Shown here in pieces: positions 27,362-59,556 of a stretch of DNA of 64,000 nucleotides (positions are counted from its first letter, which is position 1; each line of letters starts with the position of its first letter). The DNA is from Thermoleophilia bacterium (lineage in GTDB: Bacteria > Actinomycetota > Thermoleophilia > RBG-16-64-13), in the NCBI GenBank assembly GCA_040772905.1, contig JAXGXJ010000005.1, forward strand, positions 70,149 through 134,148, written 5' to 3'. The translations under genes were made by a program, and so were the position numbers. A model generated the notes under the pieces. That model was not told the DNA's origin, made no database searches, and saw only the letters and a list, made by a program, of their open reading frames with translations.

Positions 27362-27365
27362 AAGA

Positions 27366-36974: not shown

Positions 36975-37055
36975 CGCAAAGGGGGTCAGATTTCGATCGG
37001 CACTGAACCTTAGGGTGGGTCAGTTTCAGACCGGCAGAAAAGGGTCAACTACACA

Positions 37056-39689
37056 CCGGCATTGACAGTCCCGGAGGTAGCGCTCCCATTTCTGCCACGA
37101 TGCTTCTAGCGTAGGCCCTTTGAGTTCGGGGCGCAGGAGAGGGAGGTCTTGGAAGTCCCAGGAGGTCTCGAAGTTATTCCAATCGGTGCGGGCGAGGGAG
37201 GTCAAGGAACGGGCGAGGGCCGAAGTCCCCTTGGCCACGTGGGCCAGGGGAATCTTCGCAACGTCTCCAGGTACGTAGTTCATTGTTGGAGCCAGAGCGC
37301 CCAGACAGGCTCGTGCCACGACGGAGTTGAGAACCAACAGGATCAGTTCAAGATTCTCCTCGCAGAACATTGACGAACCACCTGAACTGAAGAGAAAGCC
37401 AGGCGGCGTATGACGGAAACTCGCGGGCCCAGTCGTGACAGAGCTCCAAGTAATATTGGGTTTGAAGTAGTATTCCTCGCTCCGTATCTCCTTCGTGTAG
37501 CTTCCTCCGCCGTATCGGGCGACGATGAATGATTTCAGCTCTTTGCCATCATCTTTCCAGTTGATCAGCGTCTCGTTGAGCCCAAACCACCTTCGGTTGC
37601 CGCCGCCCTTGTTGAGAGGGAACCATTTTCCAGGGGACTCGCGGCTCATGTTGCGGCCGGCGACGCCGAATTCCGTGCTGCTCCATCCGACCTCAAACCA
37701 AAGTCGGACAAAGCTTGCGTCGTCCAGTGTAACTAGCCCTTTTCGCACGACAGCGGCACTCGCGAGGGGCGGGAATCCTTCAAAGGCAGCGACGAGCGCG
37801 GGACCGCACCAGTAGGCGACCGGACTCCCGGGAATCTTGTCCATGTCTCTGGCCGCAATATCAAACCGGAGGCCCCCTCCTGACGCGTTGGCCAACCTGA
37901 AGAGACCTTCTTTGGCTGCCTCGCTGTCGCCGTCGACCAAGCGGAAGTAGCGGCCGCGCCCGTTCCGCAAGGACCCTTTGAACGCGACGAACGCAGTCGC
38001 CTGGACTACCTCACCGCCAATAGTGTCGAACGCGCGTGGGCCCAGATGCGCCATGGTTACGATGAACTTCGACGAGAGCAACTGCCGTCGCAATGCTTCA
38101 TAGCTCGAGAGAAACATCCAGTTCTGCATAGTGATTAGGGCGAAATAGGCGTTATCACGAGCCAGAGTGGCGCATCGTTCGATGAACATGGCGAACAGGT
38201 CGGATTTCGAGTCGGGGAACCTCTCAGAACTGAAGCGGCGAACACAGTCGTTCATCGCCCCACCCCCCAGATACGGCGGGTTGGTAACCACCACGTGGTA
38301 GCGCTGGGTGAGCATCTCCGCTTGGGTGAGGGCGAGGAGAACCTTGCGCTGGGTCTCTGCAAGGAGGAGGTCAGCGGGAGCGGGAGCGTTCGCTATTTCG
38401 GTCTTGAGCTGGATGATCTCCGGCTCAGTGAGGATGGGCTGGACGAGCGAGCCGAAGGTGGAGGTGTTCTCCCGGAACTGATAGACCTGTTGGAGGACCT
38501 TAGCGGTGAAGAGACGGGTGAGGCCGCTTGAGCTGAGCCAGGCCTTGAGCTCCTCAGCCTCGAAGGGAACGTCTTCCAGGCACACGACTTGCGGTTGGAT
38601 CGCTCCCCGGAAGGCGTTTCTCGACTTCTCCCGAGCTTTGGCGAGGAGAGCGAACTGGGCGAGCTGGGTAGCCCGAGGGCAGATCTCCAGGCCATAGAGG
38701 TTGTGGGTGAGGATCTTTGTAGGGATATCGGCGGGGGCGTAGCCCTCCTCCTCATAGATCTGATAGAGAAGGTCGAAGGCGTAGGTGAGCATGTGCCCGG
38801 AGCCGCAGGCGGGGTCGAGAAGCCGGATGTCTTCTGGACGCTCAACGGTGAGGGAGTCAGCCGGAGCTTGCCCGTCCGGGTCTTCGACATAGTACGGCAT
38901 GGAGGCGCGAAGAGATGAGCGGGGACGGGAGCGAAGCCACAGCCGCCCCAGGGAGTTCTCGACGAGATAGCGCACGATCCAGTGCGGGGTGAAGAGCTGG
39001 GTGACGGCGGGGATGTCCTCGCTGGGGACGGCCGTCTTGCGGGCCATCACCTGGTCTTTCTTCTCGGAGATGTAGAACTGATAGAGCCAGCCGAGGATCT
39101 CCACCTCAGCGCAGTCCTCGTCAGTGATCTCGCTCCGGAAACCGTGGGCCACGGAGTGGTCGGTGAGGAGGTCATCGGGAAGAAGGAGTTCGGTCTCGTC
39201 ATCGAGGCGCTCAAAGAGAAGGGGCAAGAGCGCGTGGTAGTAGCGGCAGGCGGCGAGCACCAGGTGGCGATAGACCTCGCCCTGGGGATCGGACGAAGGC
39301 AGGCGGCCATCGAGAAGATCTCCGAGCCGAGCGGGATCGGTATAGGGCCTCAGCTGATCGGGGATAACCTCGGTCCGAACCAGACGCAGAATCTCAGGCT
39401 GGGTCTCGGAAGCCGAAGCGGGCGTGACGATCCGCACCCGGAAAGGGTGCCAGCCGCGGGCGTCTAGGAATCGCAGGGCCGCCAGGCGGTTGAACCAAGT
39501 GTAGGCGACTCGCTCGATGAGCTGAGAGCGGTTCTGTACGGACTGGGCCCGGAGGCGCTCCACCTGTGCCGACGCAGCCCGCAGATCGGGTGTGTCGGCA
39601 GTGAGGACGTAGTCAAGCTTGCGTTCGACGGCCTCCAGCAGGTCGCGGCGGGCCTGTTGGGCGAAGGGCTTGAGGGAGGAGGTATCCAT
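37056..39689 (-). pseudogene. pglX: BREX methyltransferase PglX, N-terminal ~870-aa fragment (split by IS21)
   Basis: N-terminal hallmark VAYTWFNRLAALRFLDARGW, then an N6-adenine methyltransferase core (VVTNPPYLGGG). The reading frame runs into the IS21 right IR and stops at 37026. Confidence 0.75.
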
Positions 39690-39694
39690 GGCGC

Positions 39695-42600
39695 TCAGAG
39701 TGTGACCTTGTTGCCTTTGGCAAGCTCAACCGCGATGACCGACCGGAGTGCATCCAGCCAGCGCTCCAGTTCCGCTTCGGTCGAAATGAACGCCAAGTCC
39801 AAGTGCGGCTTCAGGCTTGTCACGGGAACATACCGGACTGGAGGCGGAGGCGGTTCATCCTCCGGCGTCTCTGGTGTTGTCAGAGCAGCCACGAGCGCAA
39901 GCTGGGCAGGGTACTCCTCGGAGAGATAGCGCGCGAGCCGGTTGCGGACTCCGCTGATGTATTCCTCCGCATCTATCGCCTCGCGAGCCGCGGCGGATTT
40001 CTGCATCACCTGCGCCTGCTGAGTGTCGCTGAGCTGCGAGTGTTCCGGCAGGGCTCTGATCTTCGCCTCGCATTCCGCGATGGCGGTCAGTGCCTTGTGA
40101 CACTCGTCGGTGAGCAGGGCATCGATGAGACGCTTCACATCCGCCATAGCCACTCTAGCCTTGGGCAGCAGCTCGCCTCGATAGGGGGCACCCGATTCCG
40201 CGACGGCCCTCAGAGGCTCGAGATTCTCCGGCGGGACGTCTCCGAAGTTCGCCCTCTCGGTCGCCAGGAAGGTGATGACCTCGTCATAGGCGATGCGCTG
40301 CTTGCCGTGCATGAAGCCCTTGATAGGAGCGATGGTCTCCTGCTTGGCCGTGAGCAGCTCTTGGGAGAACTCATCCAGCTGGTTGAGGAGATACGGGTAG
40401 TCCTTCTGAGAAATGGCTTTGAGCCGGTTCTTCACGGGCTCTAGGTCGCTCAGGAACGGGTACGTCGCCTTCTGATCGAGCAGCAATTCCAGGTCACGCG
40501 CCTCGCACGCAAGCGCCTCCAGGGTCAGCTGGGCGACCGACCGGGCATCGGTCCCGTCGTTCGGGCGATCAAAGAAGTCGTGATGGAAGTTCTTGAGCGC
40601 CGCGACCACCTCGGGCGGCCACTGCTCCTGCAGACTGATGCGCACCGTTCCATGATGCTTGGAGTTCCGAAATGCGTCGAAAGCCCCTTGCGCATCGAGC
40701 AGCTCCGCCTGCCTGAGTTCCAGCTTCCCCATGCGGAATAGCCGAGCTACTTGCACGAGAACACCCATGACAGGCCAGCCGTACGGCCGCTTCCCGAAGT
40801 CGCGCACCATCTCCTCGACGGTGACCCGTTCCTTGTCCGTCTTCTGAGTGCGAAGCACGTTCGTGAGGACCTCTTGTTCAGCCTCGGAGAGCGTGTGCCC
40901 GCCGCCGGCCATGAGATCGTCGGGGTCGAGCAGGGTCTTTCTTAATTGCTCTTCGTTGTAGGTGCCCCTGAGCATCCGCAGGCTGGGGTAGGCGAACGAG
41001 ATCAGCTCCTGGCCGGCCTTCTGGAAGCGCGTCCGTGCTTCACCCTCCCCAATGTCGGTGAGCTTCGAGCCGTTCAGGTAGAGGACGGCTTTCCCCATAA
41101 GATCCTCGCAACGCTTCTGCAGCTCGCTCCTGTTGGTGCTGTTCTGCTGACTGCGGCGATCGAGGATCTCGCGACGGGTGGAATCGAAGTGCGTCCCCGG
41201 GTTCTGCTGGATGTACTTGCGCGTCTTGATGAACAGACGAGCGTCGTCTATCACGCGAGCATCAGCGGGCAGCACGGCCAGGAGTTCAGCCTTACCCGTA
41301 TTCTGCGCCGCCAGCGTGTACAGATCGCCGTGATGGGGATGGTCGGCGGTGATCACATTGACGGAGAGCTCCGCATCCTTGCCCACCAGGTGGTCGTCCA
41401 GGCGACGGGCGTAGGAGTAGTCCTGGCCGTTCACGTCGTAGCGGATCTTGGGGTCGCGCAGGATGTCGGCGAAGAAGATGTCGGACAGGAGCTTGGTCTG
41501 CTCGGACTCGTCGATCTCCGTGCCCTTGATCTCTGTCTCGATGTCCTTCTCGGTGTCGGTCAGGAACTCGTAGAGCTCGCCGTTCCGCTGCAGGTAGGAC
41601 TGCTGCTCGAGGAGGTTGAGGGCCTCCCGCACCGCCTTCTCGTGAGCCTGCATGTTGATGTCCGGCCGGTCGATCAGCAGGATGGCCACGTTTCGCGGAC
41701 TGGGCTTAAACGATGTGACCCATTTGAGCAAGAAGAGCGCCTTGAGGATGCGGGCAGCGAGCGGATCGTCCAGGTGATCCTCCGCCTGTTGTACGGAGGT
41801 CTGCATGTCGCCGCGGATGGTCGCCGACATGCCGTCGAACATCTTGTCGAAGGTGGCCAGACCACCCACGTCCTGTCCACTCAGATATACGACCACATCT
41901 TGAAACACCTCGAGCATCGACCGCTCGCCCACAGACGTCTGCCTGCCGGTGAACGCATCGTGGCGAGAGAGCTGCTCAATGGCCCGCTGGAAGAGGTCGA
42001 ACTGATAGGGGACGAAGGGGTAGTAACTGCAGAACTCATCGCTCCCACGCCAGGTTCGGTAGGGCATCGAGCCATCGCCGAACCGATACATGGTCTGCAG
42101 GTTCTCCTTCTCCCTGTCGTAGACGCTGGTGAGAGCCTCGGGCTCCGCTTCAGTCTTGGCCAGCAGGCGCCTCTGGATGACCTCGCGCACGTCGGCGCTC
42201 GTAAGATTCACGCGGCTCTTGAAGCGCCCCTGGATCTTGGTGAAGTCGTCACCCTCTCCCCTGCGCAGCTCTCCCAGGACGTTCTTGAGATCGCCCTGGG
42301 AGGTGACGAACACCCAGGCCCTGCCCTGGCAGATGGTGGCCAATGACTCGGCAATGGTCTGCAGGTTGAGCATGAGCCGAGAGTCCTGACCGATGAACTG
42401 CCCCACCTCGTCGGCGAAGAAGTTGAGGCGGAAGTCCGGCCCCTGTCTGTCGATGTAAGCCTTCACCCGCCTGGCGAAGTCCTCGGGCGAGACCTTGTAA
42501 CCCTCACGCTGCCGATCGAAGAGCTTCAGGCCCTCGTCGTACGATTTGCCGAAGAACTCAGCGTAGACCTTGGCGAACGTCTCGTTCTCCAGGGTCTCCA

Positions 42601-43191
42601 GCACCGGCAGGTCCTGTTCCCAACTCCGACCGCTCACCGCCGCGTAGGTCTGCTTGAAGGCCTCAAGCTCGCCTCGAGAGTCAAGGTCGTACTCGAACTG
42701 GGCGATGTGACCCTGCTTGGCGTAGTAGCCCTGGAGCTCGTTGAGGACCTTGACGAACACCTCGAGTACGGCCGACTCGCGATCGCCACCGATGGCATCG
42801 GACTTCTGGTCGATGTTGAAGAGGATGCTGCGCGAGGGAATCTTGATGGCCTTCTGGAGATCCGCCCGCAGGAACTCGTCGTCGAGCTTGGGTATGAGGA
42901 TGTCGGCGGCCTGAGCTCCGCTGGGCAGCGTCCGGTTCTCCAGCACCAGCGAGAGGATCGCGAGGAGGTGCGACTTTCCGGAGCCGAAGAAGCCCAGCGA
43001 GATCGAACTCCGTTGGCCTTCGTCCTCTCCTGGCTCACGTACTGCTCCATGAGGGCAGTTAGACCCTTCGAGATCTCCCCGGTGACGACGCCATTCCTCG
43101 ACCTCGTTTTCGAGATTGCGATCGTCATCGGCTTTGATGACCCCTTCGATGGACGGTAGCCAGGTTTACTGAACAGGTCACGTATCTTCAT
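39695..43191 (-). pseudogene. brxC: BREX P-loop ATPase BrxC with three apparent frameshifts in the first ~180 nt
   Basis: ATG at 43191 gives MKIRDLFSKP. Expected continuation PSIEGVIKADDDRNLENEVEEW is in another frame. VVTGEISKGLTALMEQYVSQERTKANGV is back in the first frame. ISLGFFGSGKSHLL... and the remaining 1080 aa are again in the second frame. Confidence 0.65.
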
Positions 43192-43198
43192 GGGCCCC

Positions 43199-43795
43199 TC
43201 ACGGTCGATAGTGAGCCAGATTGAACGCGCGGTAGTACGGGCGATAGAGCGGCGGCGTGGCCTGCGATCCGAAGAGCCTGAGCACGGAGGCACCATTCTC
43301 TTCCTGCCTGTACTCCCCGGGAAAGAACATCACGACAGGCCGCTTGACCATCGCGGGCTGGAGCGACTCCAAGATGGTGTGGGTGCGCAGGAACGGGAAC
43401 ACCCTGCCCACACCTAGCAGTAGCGCCAGCTGTACGCCGTCGTCCCCTACCTTCTTCATGAGCCGGGGGATGAGCCGGGTCTTCGGGTCGGCCAGGTTGG
43501 ACATCATGTCAAGGAGCTTCTGCTTGCCGATGGAGCGCTCCTTCTCCAGGATCGGCTGAAGTCGGCCCTCCTCCTCTAGTTGCTCGAGGATGAGATCGAA
43601 GAGGTCCACCACGGCCACCGAAACGCCGTGAGTGCGAAGCCGCGTGGCCAGGTGGTCGATCATGATCCGCACCTTGTCCTCGTCCTGAGGCTCGTAGGTC
43701 TCGATGAAGATGGGGACCTCGTTCGCGAGTCCCTTCATGGACAGGAAGTGCGGATGGCTGAGAATGCGGAACAGGCGCTCGCTCTGGTCAGCCAC
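43199..43795 (-). CDS. brxB: BREX protein BrxB (DUF1788 family)
   Basis: 198 aa; position between brxA and brxC and family-like pattern (NEVPIFIETYEPQDE...VAVVDLFDLILEQL). Confidence 0.65.
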   Translation of the reverse strand: MADQSERLFRILSHPHFLSMKGLANEVPIFIETYEPQDEDKVRIMIDHLATRLRTHGVSVAVVDLFDLILEQLEEEGRLQPILEKERSIGKQKLLDMMSNLADPKTRLIPRLMKKVGDDGVQLALLLGVGRVFPFLRTHTILESLQPAMVKRPVVMFFPGEYRQEENGASVLRLFGSQATPPLYRPYYRAFNLAHYRP

Positions 43796-43797
43796 CG

Positions 43798-44442
43798 TTA
43801 AGCCCCTATCCTGCCGATTTCGTCATCGGGAATGAGAAACCCCGCGAGCCAGCACCGATCCTCGGCAATGATGGCCGAGCGGACCTCCGGGGGGAGCAGA
43901 GCCCGACGCAAGTCGAAGTCCTTCGGACCCTCACCCAGGATGCCGACCTCGCGGAGCATCCTGAAGAGCACCTGGCGGATCTTGGCTTTCGTGCTGGCTG
44001 TCAACTCCTGCACCTCGGGATGGGCCAGGCCCTCCGTCGCCAGGAAGTCCTCGTAATCCGAGGGCCGGAGCACCCGGTCATGGCCCTCCATCTTGGCACG
44101 AAGCGATTCGGAGGCGAAGGCATAGATGAACGGATTCAGCTTGAGCACCGACAGCCACGCGATGGCCCTGCGGGCGTCTGCCGAGCCTTGAGCGAGGATC
44201 TCCAACTGCCCACGCGAGAGTGTCTGCAGGCGCTGACGCACCTCCCGCTCCATACGCACACCACTTGCCGGATTCTTCGCTTGCAGCAGATTCTCAGACA
44301 GCGCTCGCCGGCGGGTCTCGTCCCAGTCACCGGACTCGAGGTACAACTCAGCGACGATCCGGGCCAGTTCTGGACGCAGCGAGGCGGCCGTGAAGGCCAG
44401 CGAGTACTTCTGGGTGCCGCAAGAATTAGGAAGCATCCGCAC
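43798..44442 (-). CDS. brxA: BREX protein BrxA (DUF1819 family)
   Basis: 214 aa; first gene of the cluster; KYSLAFTAASL...IVAELYLESGDWDE pattern typical of BrxA. Confidence 0.65.
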   Translation of the reverse strand: MRMLPNSCGTQKYSLAFTAASLRPELARIVAELYLESGDWDETRRRALSENLLQAKNPASGVRMEREVRQRLQTLSRGQLEILAQGSADARRAIAWLSVLKLNPFIYAFASESLRAKMEGHDRVLRPSDYEDFLATEGLAHPEVQELTASTKAKIRQVLFRMLREVGILGEGPKDFDLRRALLPPEVRSAIIAEDRCWLAGFLIPDDEIGRIGA

Positions 44443-45192: not shown

Positions 45193-48018
45193 CTATGTGT
45201 CACACAGGAACCGTGCAAAGCACTCCCGGTCCTCGAGCAGGGCCATGATTCGCTCGCCGTCACCTGCCGCGAACGCTTCTTCCAGTCTGCGCTGGTAGCT
45301 GTCCCACCGGGGCACCCCCTTATCGTAGAGGTTGTACTCCGGCCCCGCCTCCGCCAATATCGAACTTACCCTGTTCATCGATCCGTGCATGGCGGTCCTC
45401 GCACTCGCCTCCCAGCGCAGTCTTGCTAGGAGCTCCTCCTTACACTTCTGAACCCTGCTTCTGACTCCCCTCGGTAGGCGGCACCCCTCGTAGGTGTGTC
45501 GCGTCAGTAGCTTGATCTCCTCCCCTCTTACTACCATACCGAACCCTGCGGAGTGGACCCTCGCCGTCACCTCACGTGCCGACTCACTCATCTCGGCGAT
45601 TGCTGGGCCACGACCAATCCCAAGCCCTCCACCATCCGTCCTCTCCGCCACGCCGCCACGTGTCGCCTCCGACGCCACTTCGGTAAGTGACGGAGCCGCC
45701 ACGGAGCCATCGGGTGTGGCGGGGGATCCCATGGCCTCCACCGTTTCGTCAGCGCACTGTGGCGGTGTGGCGGGGAGATAGCGGTCAAAGGCGTCCTCGA
45801 ACTGCTCGCGGAGGTAGCCCTTGTGATTGCAGTTCTCTCCCTCGCGGATGCTGCGAGGTCGGATCCCGAAGGGCTTGAGGAGCCGCGCCAGGCCAGCCGG
45901 ACTGAGCTCGCGCCCACGGCTCCATTCCGGCCACGGTCTTTCGTCCATTGCGTTTAGGGCGGCGAGGATCTCCTGCGTTGAAAGTCGATCGTGGGCTTCG
46001 AACAAGGTGCGTAGGTCTTCAAGCACCATGATGCCGGCTGTCTCCTCCTCGGCTGCGCCGCTCAGCAGGAGAGCCGAGTTCCGCGCCCGCTCTGGCCACG
46101 AGCCGCCTACGACCTCGGCGATAGCAAGAAGTGGGCGCCAGTTGTCTGCCAATCGATTGCCAAAGCCGGGTGGTATGTAGGGCTCATGCAGCCGCAGCAC
46201 CTCGAGGTGATCCAGGGCCCACCGCGCCATCTTTCGCCGCAGTGGCAAGAGCTCATCTAGCTGATGGAGGCGCAAGGGCATCACGTCCTCGCCCTGGGTT
46301 TTACGCTGAAGACGGACGTGGACGCTCCGGGAAGCCAGCGTTGCCGGCAACTTGCCGATCATGGCAATCGCCTTGGGAGCCCAGGTACTAAACCGGGCAG
46401 GCTCATGGTCTTCCCCTACGGTGCGAACGATGGACGCGGAGCGCCTCGCGTGGCCACAATTAAGTACCCCGCGGAGCTCGTCGTTGTCATTGAGGAACGT
46501 GTCCGCCTCATCGATGAGCAGAGTGGGGCTGTACCTGTCCATGGTCCGAAAGACAGCGGCGGCGGTGATATTGCTGGCCGGAAGGGCACGAGGGACCACC
46601 GCCCCCAAGAAGGTCATAGCGACTGTCTTGCCGCACTCGGGCGTCGGAGATGTGATTCCGAGGATGGGCGAGATGTCGGCCGCATCGTGCGCGTGAGCGT
46701 GGACGCACCATAACGCCATGCCTTCGGCCGCGCCGGGGGGAAGCCACACATGTCGGCGAATGACGGCGCACAGCTCGTTCAGCAGGTCTTCCCCGTCCAC
46801 CTCGTCTGGATAGGGCTCCGGTTCGTCTGGGAAGAGCTCTCCGCTGTGCGACCGACTGTGGCGACGAGCGCTGACCAGTTTGTCCAGCCGGGTGACCCTC
46901 ATCCCCAGTTCCTTGGCCGCCTGGATCCGTTCCCGCTCGTAGGCGGTCTCGCTCAGCGCTGCGAGCCGGGCCAACTCGGCCTCGAACCGGCCGCTGTCAT
47001 CCTGGCTCTGGTCGCTGCCACGTTCGTACTCGTCCCGGAGCTGTCGCCAGCCCCACGTACACGAGTCGTGGTGGCATCCGGCGCTCAACGCGCCGTTTGG
47101 CAGTTGCAGGATGAAGGCCTCCCCGCGGTTGTGATCCGAATTGAAGGGGCAGGTGGCCAGTTCGTACAGATCCCCACTCTCGTCGCGCTTCACCTTGCGC
47201 ACCTCAAGCCCATTACGCTCGATGAAGGCTTCCACGTCGAACCAGGGGCCCTCGGGGACACCGCCCGTGGAGCTGCCAAGGCCAAGCGCGAGCCCGGCCA
47301 CTTTTTCGAGGAGGGCATCCGAGACCGTCTCCAATTCCACCGGAGCGGAAAGGACACGTGAGCGTCGATGCGGTCGCTCGGCAAGGTTCTCCCCTTTACA
47401 CGCCATAGTCCCCGGTACCTTGACGATGCGAGCGGCGTTGTAGACGCCCGTGTCTACATGCAGGCCACCCTCGTCGAATCGAGCGGCCAGGGCAGTCAGC
47501 AACCGCTTCACCAGATCGCGGCCGGCTTCATCATTCGCGAGGTCGATACGATAGAACAGATGAGCGCCGTTCCCGCTCATGACAGCGGCGCCTTCCGGCC
47601 AGCCGCACTCGTCCTCGAGAAACAGCCGAATCCGCTGCGCGACGGCCAGGCAGGACTCGAGCTCTTCATCTGTGGCGGATGTCCCGGAAGGACGCTGATA
47701 GTCGACGTCAATGAGCAAAGCTCGACGGCGCAGGATGTCCCTGTCGGCGGAGGTGGTGTGGACCAGCTCCTCGAGGCGATTAAGAGCGCCTGCGTTTGCG
47801 GGCGGCCTCACCGGATTGAGGGTCAGGTAGATGCCGGGAACCCGCCCATCGTAAGAGGCTAGGGCAGCCGCGGCGGCCTCGGCATCGTCAAAGTAGCCGG
47901 AGACAGTTCCGCTGCGTCTTGCTCGGGGTATTCTGATTTCGAAGACTTCGCCGGGCCGGTGCAGCAGGGAGATCGCCTGCCGGGCGATCTGGGTATCGTA
48001 GCCGTTGTGACTCTCCAT
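45193..48018 (-). CDS. replication protein: bifunctional primase-polymerase (prim-pol) N-terminal domain fused to P-loop NTPase (DUF3987-like) domain
   Basis: 941 aa. N-terminal prim-pol pattern (ALLIDVDYQR ... GNGAHLFYRI). Central Walker A PTPECGKTVA and Walker B LLIDEAD. Confidence 0.7.
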   Translation of the reverse strand: MESHNGYDTQIARQAISLLHRPGEVFEIRIPRARRSGTVSGYFDDAEAAAAALASYDGRVPGIYLTLNPVRPPANAGALNRLEELVHTTSADRDILRRRALLIDVDYQRPSGTSATDEELESCLAVAQRIRLFLEDECGWPEGAAVMSGNGAHLFYRIDLANDEAGRDLVKRLLTALAARFDEGGLHVDTGVYNAARIVKVPGTMACKGENLAERPHRRSRVLSAPVELETVSDALLEKVAGLALGLGSSTGGVPEGPWFDVEAFIERNGLEVRKVKRDESGDLYELATCPFNSDHNRGEAFILQLPNGALSAGCHHDSCTWGWRQLRDEYERGSDQSQDDSGRFEAELARLAALSETAYERERIQAAKELGMRVTRLDKLVSARRHSRSHSGELFPDEPEPYPDEVDGEDLLNELCAVIRRHVWLPPGAAEGMALWCVHAHAHDAADISPILGITSPTPECGKTVAMTFLGAVVPRALPASNITAAAVFRTMDRYSPTLLIDEADTFLNDNDELRGVLNCGHARRSASIVRTVGEDHEPARFSTWAPKAIAMIGKLPATLASRSVHVRLQRKTQGEDVMPLRLHQLDELLPLRRKMARWALDHLEVLRLHEPYIPPGFGNRLADNWRPLLAIAEVVGGSWPERARNSALLLSGAAEEETAGIMVLEDLRTLFEAHDRLSTQEILAALNAMDERPWPEWSRGRELSPAGLARLLKPFGIRPRSIREGENCNHKGYLREQFEDAFDRYLPATPPQCADETVEAMGSPATPDGSVAAPSLTEVASEATRGGVAERTDGGGLGIGRGPAIAEMSESAREVTARVHSAGFGMVVRGEEIKLLTRHTYEGCRLPRGVRSRVQKCKEELLARLRWEASARTAMHGSMNRVSSILAEAGPEYNLYDKGVPRWDSYQRRLEEAFAAGDGERIMALLEDRECFARFLCDT

Positions 48019-48407: not shown

Positions 48408-48926
48408 GTGTCGAGCGAGGATGCCGCACGAGAAGACAAGGCAAGGTCAAAGCCTCGGCGCTCATCGAAGACATTCCGGGGGAACAAGCGCACGCCGGTT
48501 GAGGGAAAGCGCTTTCCCTCCGAGATCTTCGGGGACAATGTTCGGCTTTTGAGACACAGGCGCGAATTGCGCCAGCAGGATCTGGCTGAGTGGATGAATA
48601 ACCTCGGGTTCTCCGGCTGGTCCTACGTTACGGTGTCCGATGTTGAGCGGGGCATGCGGAGCACCAGCATCGATGAACTATTCGCGCTGGCGTTCGCGCT
48701 CAAGGCGCCGGTGGTCAAGCTGCTCGACCCCTGCTTCACCGGCAATCGGGGCCAAGACATCGACCTCGGCTTTGAGCATTTCGAACAATGGGCGCCCAGG
48801 GATCCGCGGGCGTTCATCGTGCCGAGCGGTGATCCATGGGCACTGGAGCAGGGTGATGTGACCTACGACCGGTATCGGAGCCAGTTCGAGCGACTCGTGG
48901 AAGACGCCGAGCAAGGTCTCCTGTGA
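48408..48926 (+). CDS. XRE-family (Cro/CI-type HTH) transcriptional regulator
   Basis: HTH FGDNVRLLRHRRELRQQDLAEWMNNLGFSGWSYVTVSDVERG. GTG at 48408 is preceded by GGAGG. Alternative upstream ATG at 48345. Confidence 0.6.
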   Translation: MSSEDAAREDKARSKPRRSSKTFRGNKRTPVEGKRFPSEIFGDNVRLLRHRRELRQQDLAEWMNNLGFSGWSYVTVSDVERGMRSTSIDELFALAFALKAPVVKLLDPCFTGNRGQDIDLGFEHFEQWAPRDPRAFIVPSGDPWALEQGDVTYDRYRSQFERLVEDAEQGLL

Positions 48927-50095
48927 GGGGCTCCCTTCGCAAACGGGGCGGTGGCTGGGAATGGCGGGCGCGCACACCCGACGGCCGCCATGTGAGCAAG
49001 GCAGGCTTCGAGACCCGAAAGGCGGCCCAAGAGGCGCTCACCAAAGCGCTGGCCGCCATGGCTGACCAGCGGTTCGTCCGTCCCGATCGGCTGACGGTCG
49101 AGGACTATCTCACCGACACCTGGCTCCCGGCCGCCAAGCCGACCGTGGCCTACACCAGCTATATCAACTATGCGAGCGTCATCGCCAACCACATCGTCCC
49201 GAATATAGGGGACATCCCTTTGCAGAAGCTCACGCCGGGCCACGTGAAGGCCATGTACGCCGAACTGTCTCAATCGGGGCACCGGGCCAGCACGAAGAAG
49301 AAGCCCAAAGGGCTCTCGCCCAAGAGCATCCGCAACGTGCACACCACACTGCATCGAGCCCTCAGCGACGCCGTCGAGTGGGGATACGTGGCCGGCAACG
49401 TGGCCAGCCGCGTGAAACCACCCAAGCTGAACGCCGAGCTTCACATGAAGGCGTGGACCGCCGCCCAGCTGCAGACCTTCCTCGCCCACACGAGCAAGGA
49501 CCGCTGGTATCCGCTGTGGCGCCTCCTTGCCCTGACCGGCATGCGCCGGGGTGAGGCCATGGGACTGCGCTGGTCGGATGTCGATCTCGAGGCCGCTCGC
49601 ATCTCCATAGTCCAAGCACGCAGCATCTGGGGGATCTCCTCCCCCAAGACGCCCCGCAGCCGCCGGTCTCTCGACCTGGATCCGGAGACGGTGGCCGTGC
49701 TTAGACGGTGGCGGCGCCAGCAGCTCGAGGAACGCATGCTCTGGGGAGAACTCTGGACTGACACCGGCCTGGTCTTCACACGCGAGGACGGCCGGGCCGG
49801 GCACAGCGACACCGTGACCGGCGTCTTCGTCCGTGAGCAGGCCCGGGTCAACAAGCAGCTGGCCGAGGAGGCCCTTAAGGCTGACACGGAACCAGTCCTC
49901 CTTCCCCAGATCCGGCTGCATGACCTCCGACACACCCACGCCACGCTGCTGCTCGCCAACGGCGTGAATGCCAAGGTCATCTCAGAACGGCTTGGCCATG
50001 CATCCGTCGCCTTCACGCTCACGACCTATGCCCATGTCCTTCCCGGACAGCAGATGGAGGCGGTCACACGCTTGGCCGCTGTCATCGACGGGTAG
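48923..50095 (+). CDS. int: tyrosine site-specific recombinase (phage-type integrase)
   Basis: 390 aa. C-terminal catalytic signature LHDLRHTHATLLLANGVNAKVISERLGHASVAFTLTTYAHV with the conserved R...HxxR...Y residues. N-terminal arm-binding-like domain. Confidence 0.9.
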   Translation: MRGSLRKRGGGWEWRARTPDGRHVSKAGFETRKAAQEALTKALAAMADQRFVRPDRLTVEDYLTDTWLPAAKPTVAYTSYINYASVIANHIVPNIGDIPLQKLTPGHVKAMYAELSQSGHRASTKKKPKGLSPKSIRNVHTTLHRALSDAVEWGYVAGNVASRVKPPKLNAELHMKAWTAAQLQTFLAHTSKDRWYPLWRLLALTGMRRGEAMGLRWSDVDLEAARISIVQARSIWGISSPKTPRSRRSLDLDPETVAVLRRWRRQQLEERMLWGELWTDTGLVFTREDGRAGHSDTVTGVFVREQARVNKQLAEEALKADTEPVLLPQIRLHDLRHTHATLLLANGVNAKVISERLGHASVAFTLTTYAHVLPGQQMEAVTRLAAVIDG

Positions 50096-53725: not shown

Positions 53726-53818
53726 AGCACATGGCCTCCACAGTCGCTATCACCTCTGGCGCGGCAGGCGCGCTCGCTGTCCATGGTAGCTGACAAGGTC
53801 CGCACACCAAGGGCGCCA

Positions 53819-54646
53819 CTAGCTGGGGCCAAGCAGCCCAGGGGCCACCTTAGCGACCCAGTGCGCGTGCAGCCTGCTCCATAGAGCCGAGTGACTTCCC
53901 AGCCGCCCGGCCTGCCGCGGATGTACCAGCGGCAGCAACTTCAGGGCGTGGCCGGCAATCTCCATGTCACGGGGCCGACCGTAAGTCTCCGGCGTCTCGC
54001 CGTACAAGCCGAGTGCTGGCTGAGACCCGTAATACTGGGCAAACCACTTGAGGGGCTGGTCTCCGAGTGTGACCAGTACATCCGGCGAAGCGGACAGAAT
54101 CTCGCCCTCAATCTCAAGTCGCCTCGCCGCCGAAGCCAGGATGGAGGGGACCGAGGGAAAGTCGTAGGCAGGAAGGCCGAGTGCCTCCCGCCGTGGGTCG
54201 TATTCCCGCTCGATGGCCGCCCGCTGACGGGGGTTGCAGCGACTCTCCGGGAGAAGGTCGCAAAGCCAAGCATCGCTGCGGGTGACGCCGAGCGGTTCAA
54301 GGAACAGCGAATCCAGGGTCACCCCAGACGGGCCGTTCAGCGTCTTACTCGCGGGTATCAAGCGTCCCGCTCCGGGCGGCATTGGTATCTGCTTGATGAG
54401 CGCGTCGCCATCGTCACCGCGCCAGAAGATCTCGGGCTCAGAGGCAACCGCGAGAGCGTTGATGATCGTCTTGCCGTCCTCAGAAACCCAACGAGCATGC
54501 ACAGCACTTGCATACACGCCGAGGACGAAGATGCGCTTGGGATTAATGTCGGCCTGTCGGACCGGCACAATCGGCATGCCGAATGGGTAGGTGTACACGT
54601 GTGACCTCTCCGTCCGTCGAGTATCTAGGCGTTTCTCGACAGCCAT
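53819..54646 (-). CDS. hypothetical protein
   Basis: 275 aa from the internal ATG of track ORF 53819..54700. No confident domain; distant resemblance to the HPxxxxR motif of uracil-DNA-glycosylase-superfamily proteins (LPLVHPRQAGR). Confidence 0.35.
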   Translation of the reverse strand: MAVEKRLDTRRTERSHVYTYPFGMPIVPVRQADINPKRIFVLGVYASAVHARWVSEDGKTIINALAVASEPEIFWRGDDGDALIKQIPMPPGAGRLIPASKTLNGPSGVTLDSLFLEPLGVTRSDAWLCDLLPESRCNPRQRAAIEREYDPRREALGLPAYDFPSVPSILASAARRLEIEGEILSASPDVLVTLGDQPLKWFAQYYGSQPALGLYGETPETYGRPRDMEIAGHALKLLPLVHPRQAGRLGSHSALWSRLHAHWVAKVAPGLLGPS

Positions 54647-54984
54647 GCTTGAGGATCCTCGGGCCCCAGAATGGTCACGCCGAAGTGCTCTCTGAGCCAC
54701 GCGCTGGTCATGGGGTAGATGAGCATCAGTCGTACCGGACTGTGTGACAAGGAGCGAGCCAAGATGAACGCCCCGTTACGTTCTATCGTCTCCAGCTCAT
54801 ATACCTTGTCGCGGACACCCTCGGGGTAGTTGGCCTGGTAGAAGGCCAGTGAGAACTTGCGTCCACCTTTCGGTGCGATCTCTTCGACCCGTGCCGGCGA
54901 ATAGGACCGCATCTCCGTCCCGAATTCTTCCCCAAGCAGTTCCATTGCGTACCAGTGTCCGGGTTCTAGCGATAGTCTGTCCAT
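54625..54984 (-). CDS. hypothetical protein
   Basis: 119-aa ORF in the same orientation as its neighbours, overlapping the next gene start. No recognisable motif. Confidence 0.3.
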   Translation of the reverse strand: MDRLSLEPGHWYAMELLGEEFGTEMRSYSPARVEEIAPKGGRKFSLAFYQANYPEGVRDKVYELETIERNGAFILARSLSHSPVRLMLIYPMTSAWLREHFGVTILGPEDPQAWLSRNA

Positions 54985-55033
54985 GGTTCCGCCTGCCGTC
55001 GATGCGTGTCAGCAGACCCCGAGCGCTTGCATC

Positions 55034-55678
55034 TCAGTCTGCATCTCGGTCTTCCTCGCGGCGTTCCGCAGGACGCGCTTGTTGGTTCGCTTCATCCCGT
55101 CTTCCAACGTGGAGATCAACGTCCACGACGTGTTCTTCAGAAAACCGGAATGCCTTTGGGACGAGAGATTGATCCCGTTCGAGCACGGCTTCAACCAGGG
55201 TCGCGAGGTCGTTCCGACGCTCCTTCGGAAGTGCAGCGAGCCGTTTATCCTCGTCCATCTGATGACGAATCCGCTTGCGAGTCTCCCGGGCATGCAGGCC
55301 TTGTTCCAAGTTGTCGTAAGCCTTCGTTAGCGACTCAACTGCAGGCGGAAGGTACTTTAGACACAACCAGACGATCGAGATCAGCGGCACGTTTTGGAGG
55401 ATTTCAGGGATGACAAGCTCGACCGACCCGGGGCGGACCCGTTCAACGCGAAGATACTCAGTCGGTCGCATTGCGTAGGATCGGAAGCCGCTGGGTTGCA
55501 GCCGCCCGTAGATGTGGTCAATGAGCTGAAGGTACGCAGCCATGTCGCGAAGCGGAAGATCGCAGCAGTCGGTGCGAACTATCAGTTCAAGGCGGTCACC
55601 TTCCCGTGCCCCCGGGACAAGCAACGACTGGAGTTCCCTCAGAGCGATGACTGGCATTCGCACCACAAGGTCGCGCAT
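55034..55678 (-). CDS. hypothetical protein
   Basis: ~214 aa from the internal ATG of track ORF 55034..55729. No recognisable motif. Confidence 0.35.
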   Translation of the reverse strand: MRDLVVRMPVIALRELQSLLVPGAREGDRLELIVRTDCCDLPLRDMAAYLQLIDHIYGRLQPSGFRSYAMRPTEYLRVERVRPGSVELVIPEILQNVPLISIVWLCLKYLPPAVESLTKAYDNLEQGLHARETRKRIRHQMDEDKRLAALPKERRNDLATLVEAVLERDQSLVPKAFRFSEEHVVDVDLHVGRRDEANQQARPAERREEDRDAD

Positions 55679-55754
55679 GAATCTCCCCTTCGTCGAGCTA
55701 ACGTGTGAGCGCAACAGTGGCGCGCCCACCCCCTGCAGTTCACTCTAGCGCTTA

Positions 55755-56465
55755 TCAGACCCGCTGTTGCGGTACCAGTTCATACAGCAGATACTCCGGA
55801 GACAGGGAATCCCAGCGAGTCACGGATATCAGCAGAAGCCTCATGCACTCCGGCGAACTTCCGGACTTCAGCCGGAAGTTCGTCTGCTGGAGCATCACGT
55901 CAAGCCTATCCGGAAACTCGGCCTTCATCCGGCGAACGTGCTCGAAGCTGTTGGTCGGGTCGCTGCCGTCTTCCGCCTGGAGAGAGCCGGTTGGCACCCC
56001 CGCCAACTCCACCAGGAGCGGGGCCGGAGACACATCAAGGAGCTGGAACAACCTACGGTGTCGTCTGTACAGACTGTCCGTGACAGCTGGGACGCCCTTG
56101 TCGACTAGTACCTGAAGAAGATCCAATGTGTAGGTGAGCAATTCTGAACCGTAGCGCTTGTTCACGGCATATCGCACTGCGGTCCCGGGAGACGGCGACA
56201 CGTACGTTTGCCCATGCTGGAAGTTCCGTGAGCCAGCCCGCTGCTGAATCATTAACTCAAAAGAGTGGCGCCTACGCTTGTATATGGCATGGTCCGCCGC
56301 GTGCTCATCGAGCAAGGGCTGAATATCTCGGGCGAGATCCAACACTCCCAGCTCCTCGAGAGGATCCTTCGCTCCCAGACCGAGCCGGCGGATATCCTCA
56401 AGGAACAAGGTCGAAGTGCCGTGATACAGCGGCAAGTCGAACACTTCGCCAGCGGTCTGGGCCAT
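55755..56465 (-). CDS. hypothetical protein with ADP-ribosyltransferase/Tpt1-like H-G-T ... Y-x10-Y motif pair
   Basis: From the internal ATG (MAQTAGEVFDLPLYHGTSTLF...GQTYVSPSPGTAVRYAV). The LYHGT and Y-x10-Y motifs match the first two signature motifs of H-Y-E-class ART/Tpt1 folds. A catalytic Glu was not identified. Confidence 0.35.
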   Translation of the reverse strand: MAQTAGEVFDLPLYHGTSTLFLEDIRRLGLGAKDPLEELGVLDLARDIQPLLDEHAADHAIYKRRRHSFELMIQQRAGSRNFQHGQTYVSPSPGTAVRYAVNKRYGSELLTYTLDLLQVLVDKGVPAVTDSLYRRHRRLFQLLDVSPAPLLVELAGVPTGSLQAEDGSDPTNSFEHVRRMKAEFPDRLDVMLQQTNFRLKSGSSPECMRLLLISVTRWDSLSPEYLLYELVPQQRV

Positions 56466-56544
56466 CGAGATAGATCCCCCTTCGCCGGTGTGCCTTGCGT
56501 GTTTCGGCTTCAATGTGGGCGCAGCGCGCCAAGTGGAAGCCGGG

Positions 56545-57129
56545 TTAGGCACCTACTTGTTTGATCCAGTCCCGTATGTTCACACCGAGGCGCTCGATGT
56601 CGGGCTTCGACAAGGTGCCGCTGTGCATGATCACGTTTCGCGATCTCTCCACGACGTCAAACAGGCTTTGAACCCACTCGATGGACGGAATGTAGGGTTC
56701 AAAGAGCGTGTCGTTCTTGCGAATGATGCTCACTAGATCGCCGAATTCCGTGTAGTTCAGCGGGTCGTCGCCACGCGGAGTATGCCAACGGTTCTTCTGC
56801 TCATCGTCCCGGCGACCCTCTGCGCGCTTGCGCACATGCTCACTGGTGCCTTGCGTCCACCAGTTTTCACCGAACTCCGCAATGAGCGCATCCTTCACCA
56901 AGTCCCGGGCGGAGTTCTCGAAAGCCGCCACGGCCGTGTATACGGCCGCCATCTGTTTCGCCTCTGCCACCAAGTCGTCGTCAAGAAGCTCGATGGACAA
57001 CGTCGCCGCGATATCGGCGTCGAAGAATCCCTGAACGCACGGTCTGGGACGGCCGGCGCGATCAAGGGACTCTTCAGACAGAAGCCCCTTGAAGACGAAC
57101 TCGTAGATGTCGCCCAATCGGCCGCTCAC
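56545..57129 (-). CDS. Swt1-like HEPN-domain protein
   Basis: 194 aa with C-terminal ...EWVQSLFDVVERSRNVIMHSGTLS (R-x4-H). Its start overlaps the stop of the upstream gene (ATGA). Confidence 0.5.
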   Translation of the reverse strand: MSGRLGDIYEFVFKGLLSEESLDRAGRPRPCVQGFFDADIAATLSIELLDDDLVAEAKQMAAVYTAVAAFENSARDLVKDALIAEFGENWWTQGTSEHVRKRAEGRRDDEQKNRWHTPRGDDPLNYTEFGDLVSIIRKNDTLFEPYIPSIEWVQSLFDVVERSRNVIMHSGTLSKPDIERLGVNIRDWIKQVGA

Positions 57130-57746
57130 CTAAGATGGGTTCGCAGGCTTGCGAATATCGCATCGTAAACTGCTGGGTCACGAGACTCAGGCAGGACAAT
57201 CTGGATATTGTAGACCAGGCCATCAAGCACCAGTTCTGGTGGTGCTGTTGGCTCAATCGTTACGCTTCCCGATCCGGTCCTGACCTCCGGGACTGGCGTC
57301 TGATGAGTCTTCGGGGCCGAGGATTTGAAGTCAGCGTGTTTTGCCAGAGCCAGGAAAGTCATCGCCATCTTGTCCACAACCGAATCCGATAGCTTGCCTT
57401 CGCCCAGAGTCTTGAGCTTATTCATCACATCCTGTTTGGTCATGGTATGCGCGCTCTTGTTCACTCTGAACAAGTCTGCATAGGCTTCACGCACTCCGTC
57501 CGCCAGTACTCGGGCGGACTGAGACTGATCGAGGTACTCGAAGTAGCGTTTCGTGGGCCGACCAGCGTCATCCAGGAAGCCCAGGGACTTGAGTACGTTG
57601 ATGATGAGTCGGTCGTTGCTGCTGGTGAACCCGAGATCCTCAAGGTACTTCTGCGTGAACTTGTCTGGAGCCTGTGCGTTGCGCATGGCTGCCAGGATGC
57701 CGTCGAGGTTCTTCTGGGTGGTCAAGTACGCTGTTGGCAGTGCCAT
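57126..57746 (-). CDS. DUF5343-like protein
   Basis: Starts MALPTAYLTTQKNLDGILAAMRNAQAPDKFTQKYLEDLGF..., which I recall as the DUF5343 N-terminal pattern. First gene of an overlapping four-gene operon. Confidence 0.45.
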   Translation of the reverse strand: MALPTAYLTTQKNLDGILAAMRNAQAPDKFTQKYLEDLGFTSSNDRLIINVLKSLGFLDDAGRPTKRYFEYLDQSQSARVLADGVREAYADLFRVNKSAHTMTKQDVMNKLKTLGEGKLSDSVVDKMAMTFLALAKHADFKSSAPKTHQTPVPEVRTGSGSVTIEPTAPPELVLDGLVYNIQIVLPESRDPAVYDAIFASLRTHLR

Positions 57747-58031
57747 TCGATCCCCCCTATCGACACGAACGCTCGTGGTCAAGGGACCCTCCATTGAGCC
57801 CCCCAGAAGTGTATCTCACCCATCTGATATCACTGGCTAGTACACAGTGTGTGGCAAGCACCCCAGAATGGAGCACAGTCGTTGGGCTCTGGCCGGACAG
57901 TGGAACGACAGGCGATGGAGACGGTTCTCCTCCGTGAACTTGCGGCCGAGCTGTATCGCGCAAACAAGAGGGACTCGTCCGTCCAACGTTGGGCACATAA
58001 CCCTCGCCTCATCACTGTAGCGTCTGCCAGC

Positions 58032-59072
58032 TCACGTCGCGCCCATTGTCTGAAGCTTCTGTAGGAAGTGCGAGAAGTCGCGCAACGTTTCCAAGTCCTC
58101 ATCTGGTATGCCGTCTGGATCGAAGTGCATGACGTCATTCCGAATCTCCCGGACCCTGTCCAACTGCGTGATGACAATTTTGCGATCGATTGCGAGGCCG
58201 AGTTTGGCCCACCTTTCAGAGTTCTGGAGCAAGCGGATGTACTCACCGAATGTCAGATCCGCGACGCTCTCGACGATACGGTCTGGATCGTCTGGGTCGC
58301 GTGCTGCTTGAAGCTCCGCTGTTCCGAACCGCTCACCGATAAGCCGCCTGACATGGTTCTCGATCTCTCCGAGAAGCAGGAAGGGTTCGGTCAGTTGACG
58401 GAACTGTAGACTCAGATCGCTAGACGTCACAATCCCACTAATTACCCGATCGGCGCCTCGCACAAGTACATGGTCGTGCTCGGCGATGACGTTGATGACA
58501 TCGAACAGTGAGGCAGTCGCGTACACTTCGACGTGCGAGTCCATGAAGTCCCGCACGGGCCCAATCGGCTTCGCCAGCGCCAGCCGCGTTCCTATTCCTG
58601 AGAGAGTGATCATGCCCTTCACATCACGCTCATTGGTCATGACTGGCAACTGCGAGAAGTCATTCGTCAGCATCTTGGTCAGAGCCGTCTCTAGCAAATC
58701 GTCAGGCTTCACAGATTCCGGCGTATGATTAGCGGCCTGCAGCTTGGAGACGCGGTATGTCGGATCTTGGTAGGTGTCATGTAACGAGGGGCCTTCCTCC
58801 GGAGCTCCCTCCTCCTGCGGCGGCTCCGGTTCGCTTGCATGGCTGGCGAGCTTGAATACAATGGGTGAATCGATGTATGCGGATTCGAAGTCAGGCTCGG
58901 TGACCAACCCATATGTGGTCAGGCCCTTGCGCAACGCATAGACGATCCAGTAGCCTCTACGCTTGGCATCAATCCACGAGAGGAACTCACGGATCGTGGG
59001 CGCCGGAGATGGCTCTCCCTTGCGCAGGTCGATAGCAATCTGCTCAAGACGCTCATGGAAATCCTCGTGCAT
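58032..59072 (-). CDS. CBS-pair plus C-terminal Swt1-like HEPN domain protein
   Basis: 346 aa. Two CBS-like repeats (LTKMLTNDFSQLPVMTNERDVKGMITLSGI; VRDFMDSHVEVYATASLFDVINVIAEHDHVLVRGADRVISGIVTSSDL). C-terminal LDRVREIRNDVMHFDPDG carries R-x4-H. Confidence 0.55.
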   Translation of the reverse strand: MHEDFHERLEQIAIDLRKGEPSPAPTIREFLSWIDAKRRGYWIVYALRKGLTTYGLVTEPDFESAYIDSPIVFKLASHASEPEPPQEEGAPEEGPSLHDTYQDPTYRVSKLQAANHTPESVKPDDLLETALTKMLTNDFSQLPVMTNERDVKGMITLSGIGTRLALAKPIGPVRDFMDSHVEVYATASLFDVINVIAEHDHVLVRGADRVISGIVTSSDLSLQFRQLTEPFLLLGEIENHVRRLIGERFGTAELQAARDPDDPDRIVESVADLTFGEYIRLLQNSERWAKLGLAIDRKIVITQLDRVREIRNDVMHFDPDGIPDEDLETLRDFSHFLQKLQTMGAT

Positions 59073-59381
59073 GACACCCCCTCGTGTCCGTCTAACGTCT
59101 CAGCGCTTCGGCCTAGCGCTTTGTCCATGGTATCGGACAATGCGGCCAGTCAGCTGCACGGGCTAGTTAGACGGCGCCCGAGAAGGTTACGGGCTCGACC
59201 CAGAGCAGATAAGCCTCCCACACTCCCCAGCAGAGCCAACGCAATCTTCGGCGACGGTCGATTCACGGCGCGATTGCATACCCCTCTCGCAGGCCGTCAG
59301 GGTCCGTGGGCTAGTCCGGTCCAAGGGTTAGGTGACAATGGACGCAGACGCGGATGGGCGGACGCGCACAGCGCGCATCGG

Positions 59382-59476: not shown

Positions 59477-59479
59477 AGA

Positions 59480-59556
<77 letters not shown>

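Follow-up and report, generated by a model that had tools for sequence, protein, structure and literature searches.

Four adjacent genes on the minus strand of a 64,000-nucleotide window from a Thermoleophilia bacterium (contig JAXGXJ010000005.1; 'the window' means this whole stretch of analysed DNA) have the look of a single defence operon. In order of transcription, and here called A to D, they encode a DUF5343 protein, a Swt1-like HEPN protein, a protein with an ADP-ribosyltransferase (ART) fold and an orphan. An earlier, sequence-only reading took all four for one operon and one system. It is probable, however, that the stretch is part of a decayed integron-type cassette array of independent modules, carried in a 32-kb island at a tRNA-Met gene. 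The array holds three units: (i) genes A and B, an obligate and translationally coupled pair that belongs to the candidate system PDC-M34 of the PADLOC library, (ii) gene C, whose family is the sole novel part of the locus, and (iii) gene D, in a cassette of its own. The four open reading frames (ORFs) themselves lie where they were first placed, and all four starts are supported by a plausible ribosome-binding site and by the position at which homologues begin.

Probable separate units and the spacers between them

The pair A+B, gene C and gene D are probably three separately mobile cassettes, and the units do not occur together in other genomes. No homologue of A, B, D or DS-11 (the defence gene next to A) lies within 7 kb of a C homologue in any of 32 genome loci, no homologue of C or D is found in 80 metagenome loci recovered with a profile of A, and none of the loci with a D homologue holds one of C. 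In the closest relatives of A-B (81–82% identity), the next gene is a DUF7000 gene or a gene on the opposite strand; C and D are absent. The sequence-only reading had named two findings that would count against it, the lack of an ART-like fold in the third protein and the lack of a conserved gene neighbourhood. An ART core fold is predicted for that protein; a shared neighbourhood of the four genes is not found.

Genes A and B are the sole overlapping pair of the four (4 bp, GTGA). The distance from B to C is 79 nt, from C to D 76 nt and from D to the next ORF 49 nt, so that the description of the gene ends as overlapping or near-touching holds for A and B and fails elsewhere. As judged by alignment, the 76–79-nt spacers are homologous to attC, the recombination site of integron cassettes, and gaps derived in this way are not signs of the co-translation that the gene ends had seemed to imply. 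A shared strand and short spacers are the normal look of a cassette array, and are therefore no sign of joint function here.

The sites were sought with a covariance model, R1, built from 17 attC sites of other loci, none of them from the window. The training sites were chosen by a regular expression and a hairpin filter, and R1 E-values are rough; a two-stem structure fits only 50% of the inner-stem cells, because of shifts of register. The model itself is limited to the outer stem of 7 bp, and the relic sites escape it. Its top match in the entire window, at 19.9 bits (E about 0.0016) and on the correct strand, is the canonical site at the upstream edge of the cassette series (59172–59090; Table 1), 18 nt upstream of the DS-11 start codon. 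Semi-global alignment of this site with the attC sites of locus L037, which carries a D homologue, gives z values of 5.5–5.8. The relic spacers were likewise compared with genuine attC sites by semi-global alignment, against 1000 mononucleotide shuffles.

The spacer between B and C matches, at about 72% identity over its full length, the attC that follows the B homologue in three other loci, L124 to L126 (score 24 against a shuffle mean of 3.7 and standard deviation of 1.8, z 11.4); with the attC of a fourth locus, L069, z is 5.0. In this putative relic (56550–56492) the inner stem CGGCTTC/GAAGCCG and R'' are intact, and R' has changed from GTTAGRC to GCAAGGC. At the equivalent place, after the stop codon of B, the closest A-B relatives have a textbook 60-nt attC (GCCTAAC...GTTAGAC). 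For the spacer between C and D, the match is to a genuine attC that precedes the D homologue of L037 (z 5.1). Conservation with L037 sets in at the R' core, the expected cassette boundary, and runs through the beginning of the D cassette (TTAGCYCGACG..GGAG..ATG). The possible truncated remnant after D contains the inner-repeat motif AAGCGC. The folding energy of the spacer hairpins in the window is unexceptional (z -1.0 to +0.35).

Elsewhere the same modules are bounded by intact sites. A scan by regular expression and hairpin finds many attC sites in the other loci, those of L069 and L037 among them. R1 finds attC sites at E<0.1 in 15 of 84 A-B loci, and the closest A-B relatives sit in arrays of toxin-antitoxin cassettes with IS110-family transposases. 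At L069:300-4850 at least eight near-identical 60-bp attCs are spaced 400–1300 nt apart and A-B (1930–3128) forms one of the cassettes; this array resembles a sedentary chromosomal integron. For gene C, locus L128 has an attC 26 nt upstream of the homologue (E 5.5e-4), whose stop codon lies inside a GCCTAAC core. For gene D, the homologue in L037/L038 is attC-bounded and lies inside an array of at least nine attCs. Only 16 homologues of D are found, and profile searches of Pfam, PADLOC, NCBIfam, PHROGs and PDB give nothing significant for it. Its homologues neighbour methyltransferases, other unrelated genes or an array of small ORFs.

Several further observations concern these sites. The loci L124, L125 and L126 come from one metagenome sample and have their A-B and DUF7000 cassettes in common; the upstream Phd/ParE and helix-turn-helix/HigB cassettes and the IS110-family transposases differ, a pattern that suggests cassette shuffling and insertion of transposable elements at attC sites. 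In L128 the attC that precedes the C homologue (5894–5974) is a core variant, R'' GCCTAGC and R' GCTAGAC, in which the changes AAC to AGC and GTT to GCT keep the pairing; the downstream site (L128:6719-6860), of about 140 nt, has an inner stem of 7 bp that pairs perfectly. In the window, the 285-nt spacer between DS-11 and A has an R''-like and an R'-like core that abut (GCCCAAC|GTTGGAC, 57981–57994) and a second GCCCAAC at 57887. One explanation of the abutting cores would be an attC or cassette that has been emptied or has collapsed; their model E-value is 2, which is not significant. The spacer upstream of the T5orf172/PDC-S57 gene (53726–53827) has a 55-column local alignment, with 37 identities and z 4.3, to the canonical site (TTGTCMGMTACCATGGACA...), suggesting that the relic array reaches to about 53.7 kb.

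The locus shares with integron arrays, with clusters of attC sites lacking an integron integrase (CALINs) and with bacteriophage-resistance integron cassettes (BRiCs) the series of co-oriented short modules between attC-type sites, and the same modules are attC-bounded elsewhere. It differs from them in that the window has no IntI, most attCs are degenerate and the array lies inside a tRNA-integrated island. A CALIN is defined by at least two intact attC sites close together; in the window one site passes R1 and the remaining ones are relics. The recombinase of the island was considered as IntI and rejected (41 bits against a cut-off of 265, TIGR02249). Integron cassettes are known to carry anti-phage systems (10.1101/2024.07.02.601719), and they have been described as defence reservoirs (Darracq et al., Science 2025, and Kieffer et al., Science 2025, cited in PMC13069673).

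Table 1. Positions of the four genes, the attC-type sites and other features of the island in the window.
Feature	Position	Strand	Description
Gene A	57126..57746	minus	206 aa; DUF5343, PDC-M34A component
Gene B	56545..57129	minus	194 aa, GTG start; Swt1-like HEPN, PDC-M34B component
Gene C	55755..56465	minus	236 aa; stand-alone protein with predicted ART fold, unnamed family of about 230 aa
Gene D	55034..55678	minus	214 aa; orphan without family match, own cassette
attC-type site, canonical	59090..59172	minus	83 nt; R'' GTCTAAC ... R' GTTAGAC; upstream edge of the cassette series
Putative decayed attC closing the A-B cassette	56492..56550	minus	R'' GCCTAAC holds the B stop codon
attC-like C-D spacer	55696..55760	minus	R' GTTAGCT nearly intact; R'' GTCTGAT degenerate, overlaps the C stop codons
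Possible truncated attC remnant after D, weak	54985..55036	minus	z about 3, p 0.005-0.012 against L037 attC sites
DS-11, neighbouring cassette	58032..59072	minus	single-protein CBS+HEPN; NCBIfam NF053863, E 9.5e-113, 376 bits, cut-off 260
tRNA-Met	59480..59556	minus	ARAGORN; integration site of the island of about 32 kb
Tyrosine recombinase	48923-50095	plus	mid-island; sole tyrosine recombinase of the island
BrxA	43798-44442		BREX gene set (37026-44442) in the island
BrxB	43199-43795		BREX gene set
BrxC	39695-42946		BREX gene set
PglX-like methylase	37026-39689		BREX gene set
DUF3631 protein	45193-48018		island

The A-B pair and its predicted HEPN effector

Gene A was first described as DUF5343-like and gene B as a Swt1-type HEPN protein, and both assignments are borne out by profile searches. 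A matches Pfam PF17278 (DUF5343) at E 2.4e-45 and B matches HEPN_Swt1 (PF18731) at E 3.2e-7, with 31.1 bits against a cut-off of 27.5. The locus had also been said to be no recognised named system, which does not hold for A+B, since these two genes are a member of PDC-M34. A covers PDC-M34A (PDLC04589; E 4.7e-78) with residues 1–205 on model positions 1–207 of 208, and B covers PDC-M34B (PDLC04592; E 3.3e-74) with residues 7–193 on positions 5–191 of 192. Both models are thus matched over their full length, by genes that are adjacent and co-oriented. PDC-M34 is itself a computational candidate, with a predicted anti-phage activity, and neither it nor DUF5343 is mentioned in the literature searched.

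The two genes form an obligate, translationally coupled pair. There are 1566 homologues of A, at about 60% identity. Among the 80 metagenome loci, B lies directly downstream of A in all 67 that have room for it; in the remaining 13 the sequence stops within 624 nt of A. The junction is a 4-bp overlap in 57 of these 67 loci, a 1-bp overlap in five and affected by irregular ORF calls in five, and the window has the same gene order and tight coupling. When all ORFs around A are clustered, the only shared families are A, B and their antisense shadow ORFs.

B is predicted to be a catalytically competent HEPN RNase of the Swt1/Abi2 clade and the effector of the pair. The R-x4-H motif reported for it is present as R164-NVIM-H169; across 62 homologues, this motif and the residues E71, N72 and R75 each show conservation of at least 97%. 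In bacteria, members of the Swt1/Abi2 clade are regarded, by prediction, as active and defence-linked RNases (PMC3710099). With its R-x4-H signature, its clade membership and its place as the second gene of a small two-gene unit, after its partner, B resembles known HEPN toxin systems. It differs in its partner, which is DUF5343 and not the MNT nucleotidyltransferase of the HEPN-MNT type II/VII pairs, and which is a separate protein and not the fused CBS sensor of DS-11.

A is proposed to be a partner or antitoxin of B. By its conservation pattern, A is conserved in an all-alpha N-terminal domain, varies in a low-complexity linker and is almost invariant in a C-terminal peptide of 30 aa, GLVYNIQIVLPESRDPAVYDALFxSLRxHL. 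The last 30 residues of the DUF5343 protein (residues 174–206 of A, window 57126–57225) lie outside the Pfam domain and yet are more conserved; they are a candidate HEPN-docking peptide. A winged helix is hinted at for the N-terminal domain by the helix-helix-helix-hairpin pattern of its secondary structure and by a match, below significance, to MJ223, a protein of the MarR type (PDB, E 0.14). AlphaFold models A poorly (pLDDT 52.6), and the antitoxin-like architecture is for this reason read from the conservation pattern and the insignificant MarR-like match. The layout, a helical N-terminal domain, a flexible linker and an invariant C-terminal peptide of 30 residues, would be that of a type II antitoxin. 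A might hold B inactive until infection frees it, and B would then cleave RNA and bring about abortive infection.

Gene C and its ART-fold family

Gene C has no significant match in sequence and profile searches of Pfam, PADLOC, NCBIfam, PHROGs and PDB. A word-indexed search finds 205 homologues; in an exhaustive search, a profile of C matches 681 cluster representatives (clusters at 50% identity), of which 219 reach E<=1e-30. With few exceptions these are single-domain proteins of about 230 aa. The LYHGT (residues 13–17) and Y-x10-Y (Y88 and Y99) motifs first noticed in this protein are both real and conserved family-wide, at a spacing of about 71 residues and not the 60 first given. In an alignment of the family at 26–46% identity, L13, H15, T17, I25, G29, A96, G106, S107 and E108 are invariant and Y88, Y99, E165, G167, N196 and F197 are at least 90% conserved.

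The modelled structure of C shows an ART-fold protein that has a Tpt1-like NAD+ lobe and three helical inserts (residues 35–74, 108–144 and 171–191, together about 130 residues) and has no RNA-binding lobe. Taken alone, Foldseek gives weak matches, the best of them to pertussis toxin, Tpt1 and DarT1. The structural relatives listed for C are the Rhs toxin TreX (8.0), pertussis toxin S1 (8.0) and DarT1 (6.7), and further ArtA, heat-labile enterotoxin, CARDS, Scabin, PARPs and diphtheria toxin. At the profile level, hhalign aligns the N-terminus of C with the LYHGT-helix motif of Tpt1 at 88% probability (E 3e-6), over 27 columns and in the NAD+ lobe only; the Tpt1 alignment was seeded with a KptA sequence, verified as Tpt1 (E 4.7e-44 to PDB 7kw8) and extended with PDB sequences. 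Two of the three ART motifs can be followed along this fold. Motif 1 is the invariant H15 in LYHGTS, on the strand of residues 13–18, which aligns to the HGT of Tpt1. Motif 2, the aromatic Tyr of the H-Y-E class and presumably equivalent in structure, is Y88 on the strand of residues 88–90, with Y99 on the next helix. For motif 3, a catalytic Glu, Asp or Gln expected where strand 5 begins, the candidates are the invariant E108, E165 (at least 90% conserved) and Q193-Q194-x-N196 just before the strand of residues 197–199. On this basis C is predicted to be an NAD+-using enzyme.

Close as it is to Tpt1 in the NAD+ lobe, C begins at the HGT strand (residue 13) and consequently lacks the N-terminal RNA lobe of Tpt1/KptA, which bears the Arg-His-Arg of the catalytic tetrad, so that it cannot be a Tpt1 orthologue. 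It differs further from Tpt1 in its helical inserts and in a Y-x10-Y like that of PARPs and diphtheria toxin, and it matches no Tpt1 profile of Pfam or NCBIfam. Comparison with DarT gives no match at the sequence level and none to the DUF4433 profiles of Pfam and PADLOC. C differs from DarT/DarTG and CmdT/CmdTAC in having no cognate antitoxin or chaperone as a neighbour in the 32 loci. A Foldseek search of viral structures returns only uncharacterised proteins at low TM-scores, and IMG/VR holds one weak relative only; C is therefore not phage-borne.

A genome-wide scan places C homologues in 32 species of many phyla, among them Latescibacterota, Verrucomicrobiota, Bacteroidota, Fibrobacter, Gamma- and Betaproteobacteria, Bdellovibrio, Bacilli, Acidobacteriota and Dehalococcoidia. 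The family has no conserved partner: in all-against-all clustering of neighbours no family is common to more than three of the 32 loci, and no macrodomain, ARH or NADAR gene is seen beside C in them. C is found consistently among defence genes. The annotation of neighbours lists 25 Pfam families over 119 neighbouring ORFs, with no macrodomain among them, and the neighbours include subunits of type I restriction–modification (R-M) systems, GmrSD, SNF2/ResIII helicases, AbiH, PLD, PIN7, PDC-S14 (GIY-YIG), NERD-UvrD and an integrase. Directly 5' of the C homologue there is a PLD, NUDIX or HEPN_RiboL-PSP gene in some loci. A modular partnership of C with such variable upstream nucleases (PIN, GIY-YIG, GmrSD, NERD-UvrD, PLD, HEPN) was considered and rejected, most of them being known stand-alone systems.

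Metagenome contigs hold similar contexts. One C homologue overlaps a DUF6308 gene just upstream of hsdM-hsdS-hsdR; a second, on the contig of P0005 (JGI 3300059473), sits inside a type I R-M operon with a 4-bp overlap with hsdS and is followed by a gene for a 241-aa protein of unknown function, hsdR and a YgjP-like gene. Another lies 5 nt after a STAND NTPase gene, and yet another among MZB, NERD helicase, C5 methylase, two HNH genes and BrnT. Three loci show variation in the gene itself. At L024:6941-7562 the homologue is split into ORFs of 98 and 83 aa, apparently a pseudogene. In Bacillus/Priestia (L027:6386-7651 and L028:6383-7642) the ORFs with the C domain reach about 200 aa further upstream, with no Pfam match in that part; either the domain is truly fused to a further N-terminal part, or the ORF calls start too far upstream.

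On a tentative reading, possible rather than probable, C stands for a branch of the ART superfamily that has not been described before, and is an anti-phage effector that acts alone, depends on NAD+ and is latent. It would be spread by integron cassettes, would repeatedly have come to lie inside type I R-M operons and perhaps acts there as a PrrC-like guard. In the preferred account of the locus, C would use NAD+ to ADP-ribosylate a macromolecular target, as a single-gene effector of abortive infection, and its helical inserts may keep it latent. The prrC genes sit embedded in type I R-M loci, and C resembles them in that one homologue lies between hsdS and hsdR and another just upstream of hsdM-hsdS-hsdR. 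The likeness has its limits, as C has an ART fold and is not an anticodon nuclease, and a minority of C homologues are linked to R-M genes.

Doubtful, but still to be reckoned with, is the reading that C is not a transferase toxin: it might be an NAD+ glycohydrolase that depletes NAD+, a benign Tpt1-like or repair enzyme, or an inactive binder of NAD+ or ADP-ribose. ART-fold NADases exist, and none of the candidates for the catalytic Glu (E108, E165 and QQxN196) can be assigned to the canonical strand position. The acidic isoelectric point (pI) of the family, the lack of an antitoxin, macrodomain or ARH partner beside it and the NUDIX neighbour of one homologue point the same way. Against this stands the absence of the Tpt1 RNA lobe and of three of the four Tpt1 catalytic residues, and the defence-island, cassette and R-M-embedded contexts speak against housekeeping repair.

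Joint function, the island and wider meaning

A functional link between B and C is improbable. It would have the ART-fold enzyme work together with HEPN RNases, for instance through modification of the RNA ends that cleavage leaves, so that repair is blocked, with selection for the adjacency of the two genes. Tpt1, the closest structural relative of C, acts on RNA phosphate ends, and C homologues lie directly downstream of HEPN genes in two unrelated genomes, at 79 nt in the window and at 78 nt in Hydrogenophaga sp. IBVHS1. A HEPN neighbour is seen, however, in 2 of about 38 contexts of C, C stands beside none of the 67 A-B pairs and a putative attC remnant separates B from C. HEPN genes are in any case common in defence islands (PMC3710099). 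The Hydrogenophaga locus (L012:5777-7723) has two HEPN genes, pEK499_p136 and RiboL-PSP, on the same strand directly upstream of the C homologue, RiboL-PSP being the nearer and pEK499_p136 one gene further; it is a second HEPN-ART adjacency, from HEPN families unrelated to that of the window.

A single co-translated toxin or defence system, in which the HEPN RNase, the ART enzyme and two accessory proteins act together, is very improbable and largely refuted. The common strand, the short gaps, the lack of detected internal promoters and terminators and the position of all four genes within a defence island are in its favour. It is contradicted by the lack of co-occurrence in the 32 C loci, the 80 A-B loci and the D loci, by the very unequal family sizes (more than 1500 for A, about 205 for C and 16 for D), by the attC-derived spacers and by the closest A-B relatives, which are without C and D. 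That C and D are a toxin-immunity pair, with D neutralising the ART enzyme, deserves hardly any credence: D lies 76 nt beyond C on the strand that both share, and no role is otherwise assigned to it, but D homologues occur in none of the 32 C loci and C homologues in no D locus, an attC-like site with a conserved D-cassette boundary lies in between, and profile searches give D no macrodomain, ARH or NADAR signature.

Preferred to these readings is a decaying cassette array of independent modules, in which A-B, C and D would have been joined by cassette-type recombination. Several points weigh against it. The window has one canonical attC only, the others being recognised by pairwise homology and undetected by R1, and the evidence for relic sites is drawn from mononucleotide shuffles. 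The spacer between DS-11 and A and the region upstream of A give no significant signal against the attC sites of L037 and L124, and there is no integron integrase in the window. A scan of the four-gene stretch detects no promoters or terminators, so that read-through may co-transcribe the four genes in this genome. As for the modules, the catalytic acidic residue of C has three candidates and not one assignment, and the mildly acidic C family (median pI 5.4) is disfavoured as a binder of nucleic acid. The antitoxin-like layout of A comes from a conservation pattern and a MarR-like match at E 0.14, beside an AlphaFold model with pLDDT 52.6. The analysis shows what the genes are, the fold of C, the coupling of A to B, the failure of the units to co-occur and the homology of the spacers to attC. 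Defence activity is predicted for PDC-M34 and the C family, and we infer the toxin and antitoxin roles, the use of NAD+, the target of C and any defence phenotype.

The setting is rich in defence genes, as first described, with DS-11, PDC-S57 and BREX within one island. The anti-phage activity of DS-11 has been validated experimentally (PMC13092281), and the T5orf172 protein of the island matches PADLOC PDC-S57. The island is bounded by exact 48-bp direct repeats (27363–27410 and 59477–59524) that correspond to the 3' end of tRNA-Met, and a similar terminator-like hairpin stands before the left copy. The mid-island position of the recombinase leaves room for two tandem elements, which the island may be. 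Downstream of D, in the stretch 53819–54984, a 293-aa ORF has a weak match to the uracil-DNA-glycosylase superfamily (E 2e-4, below the cut-off) and overlaps the end of a 119-aa ORF (54625–54984) with no homology in any library searched.

For genome scans the locus carries a caution: genes that share an orientation and lie close together in a defence island can be separate integron cassettes, and a search of the spacers for attC should come before any proposal of a multi-gene system. PDC-M34 emerges with a sharper picture, as a strictly two-gene, coupled and often cassette-borne module that offers a clean target for experiment. The C family is coherent and unannotated, with about 680 clusters at 50% identity and a patchy distribution over many phyla. 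If it is active, C would enlarge the small group of ART immune effectors (DarT, CmdT) by an ADP-ribosyltransferase that is encoded by one gene and has no antitoxin.

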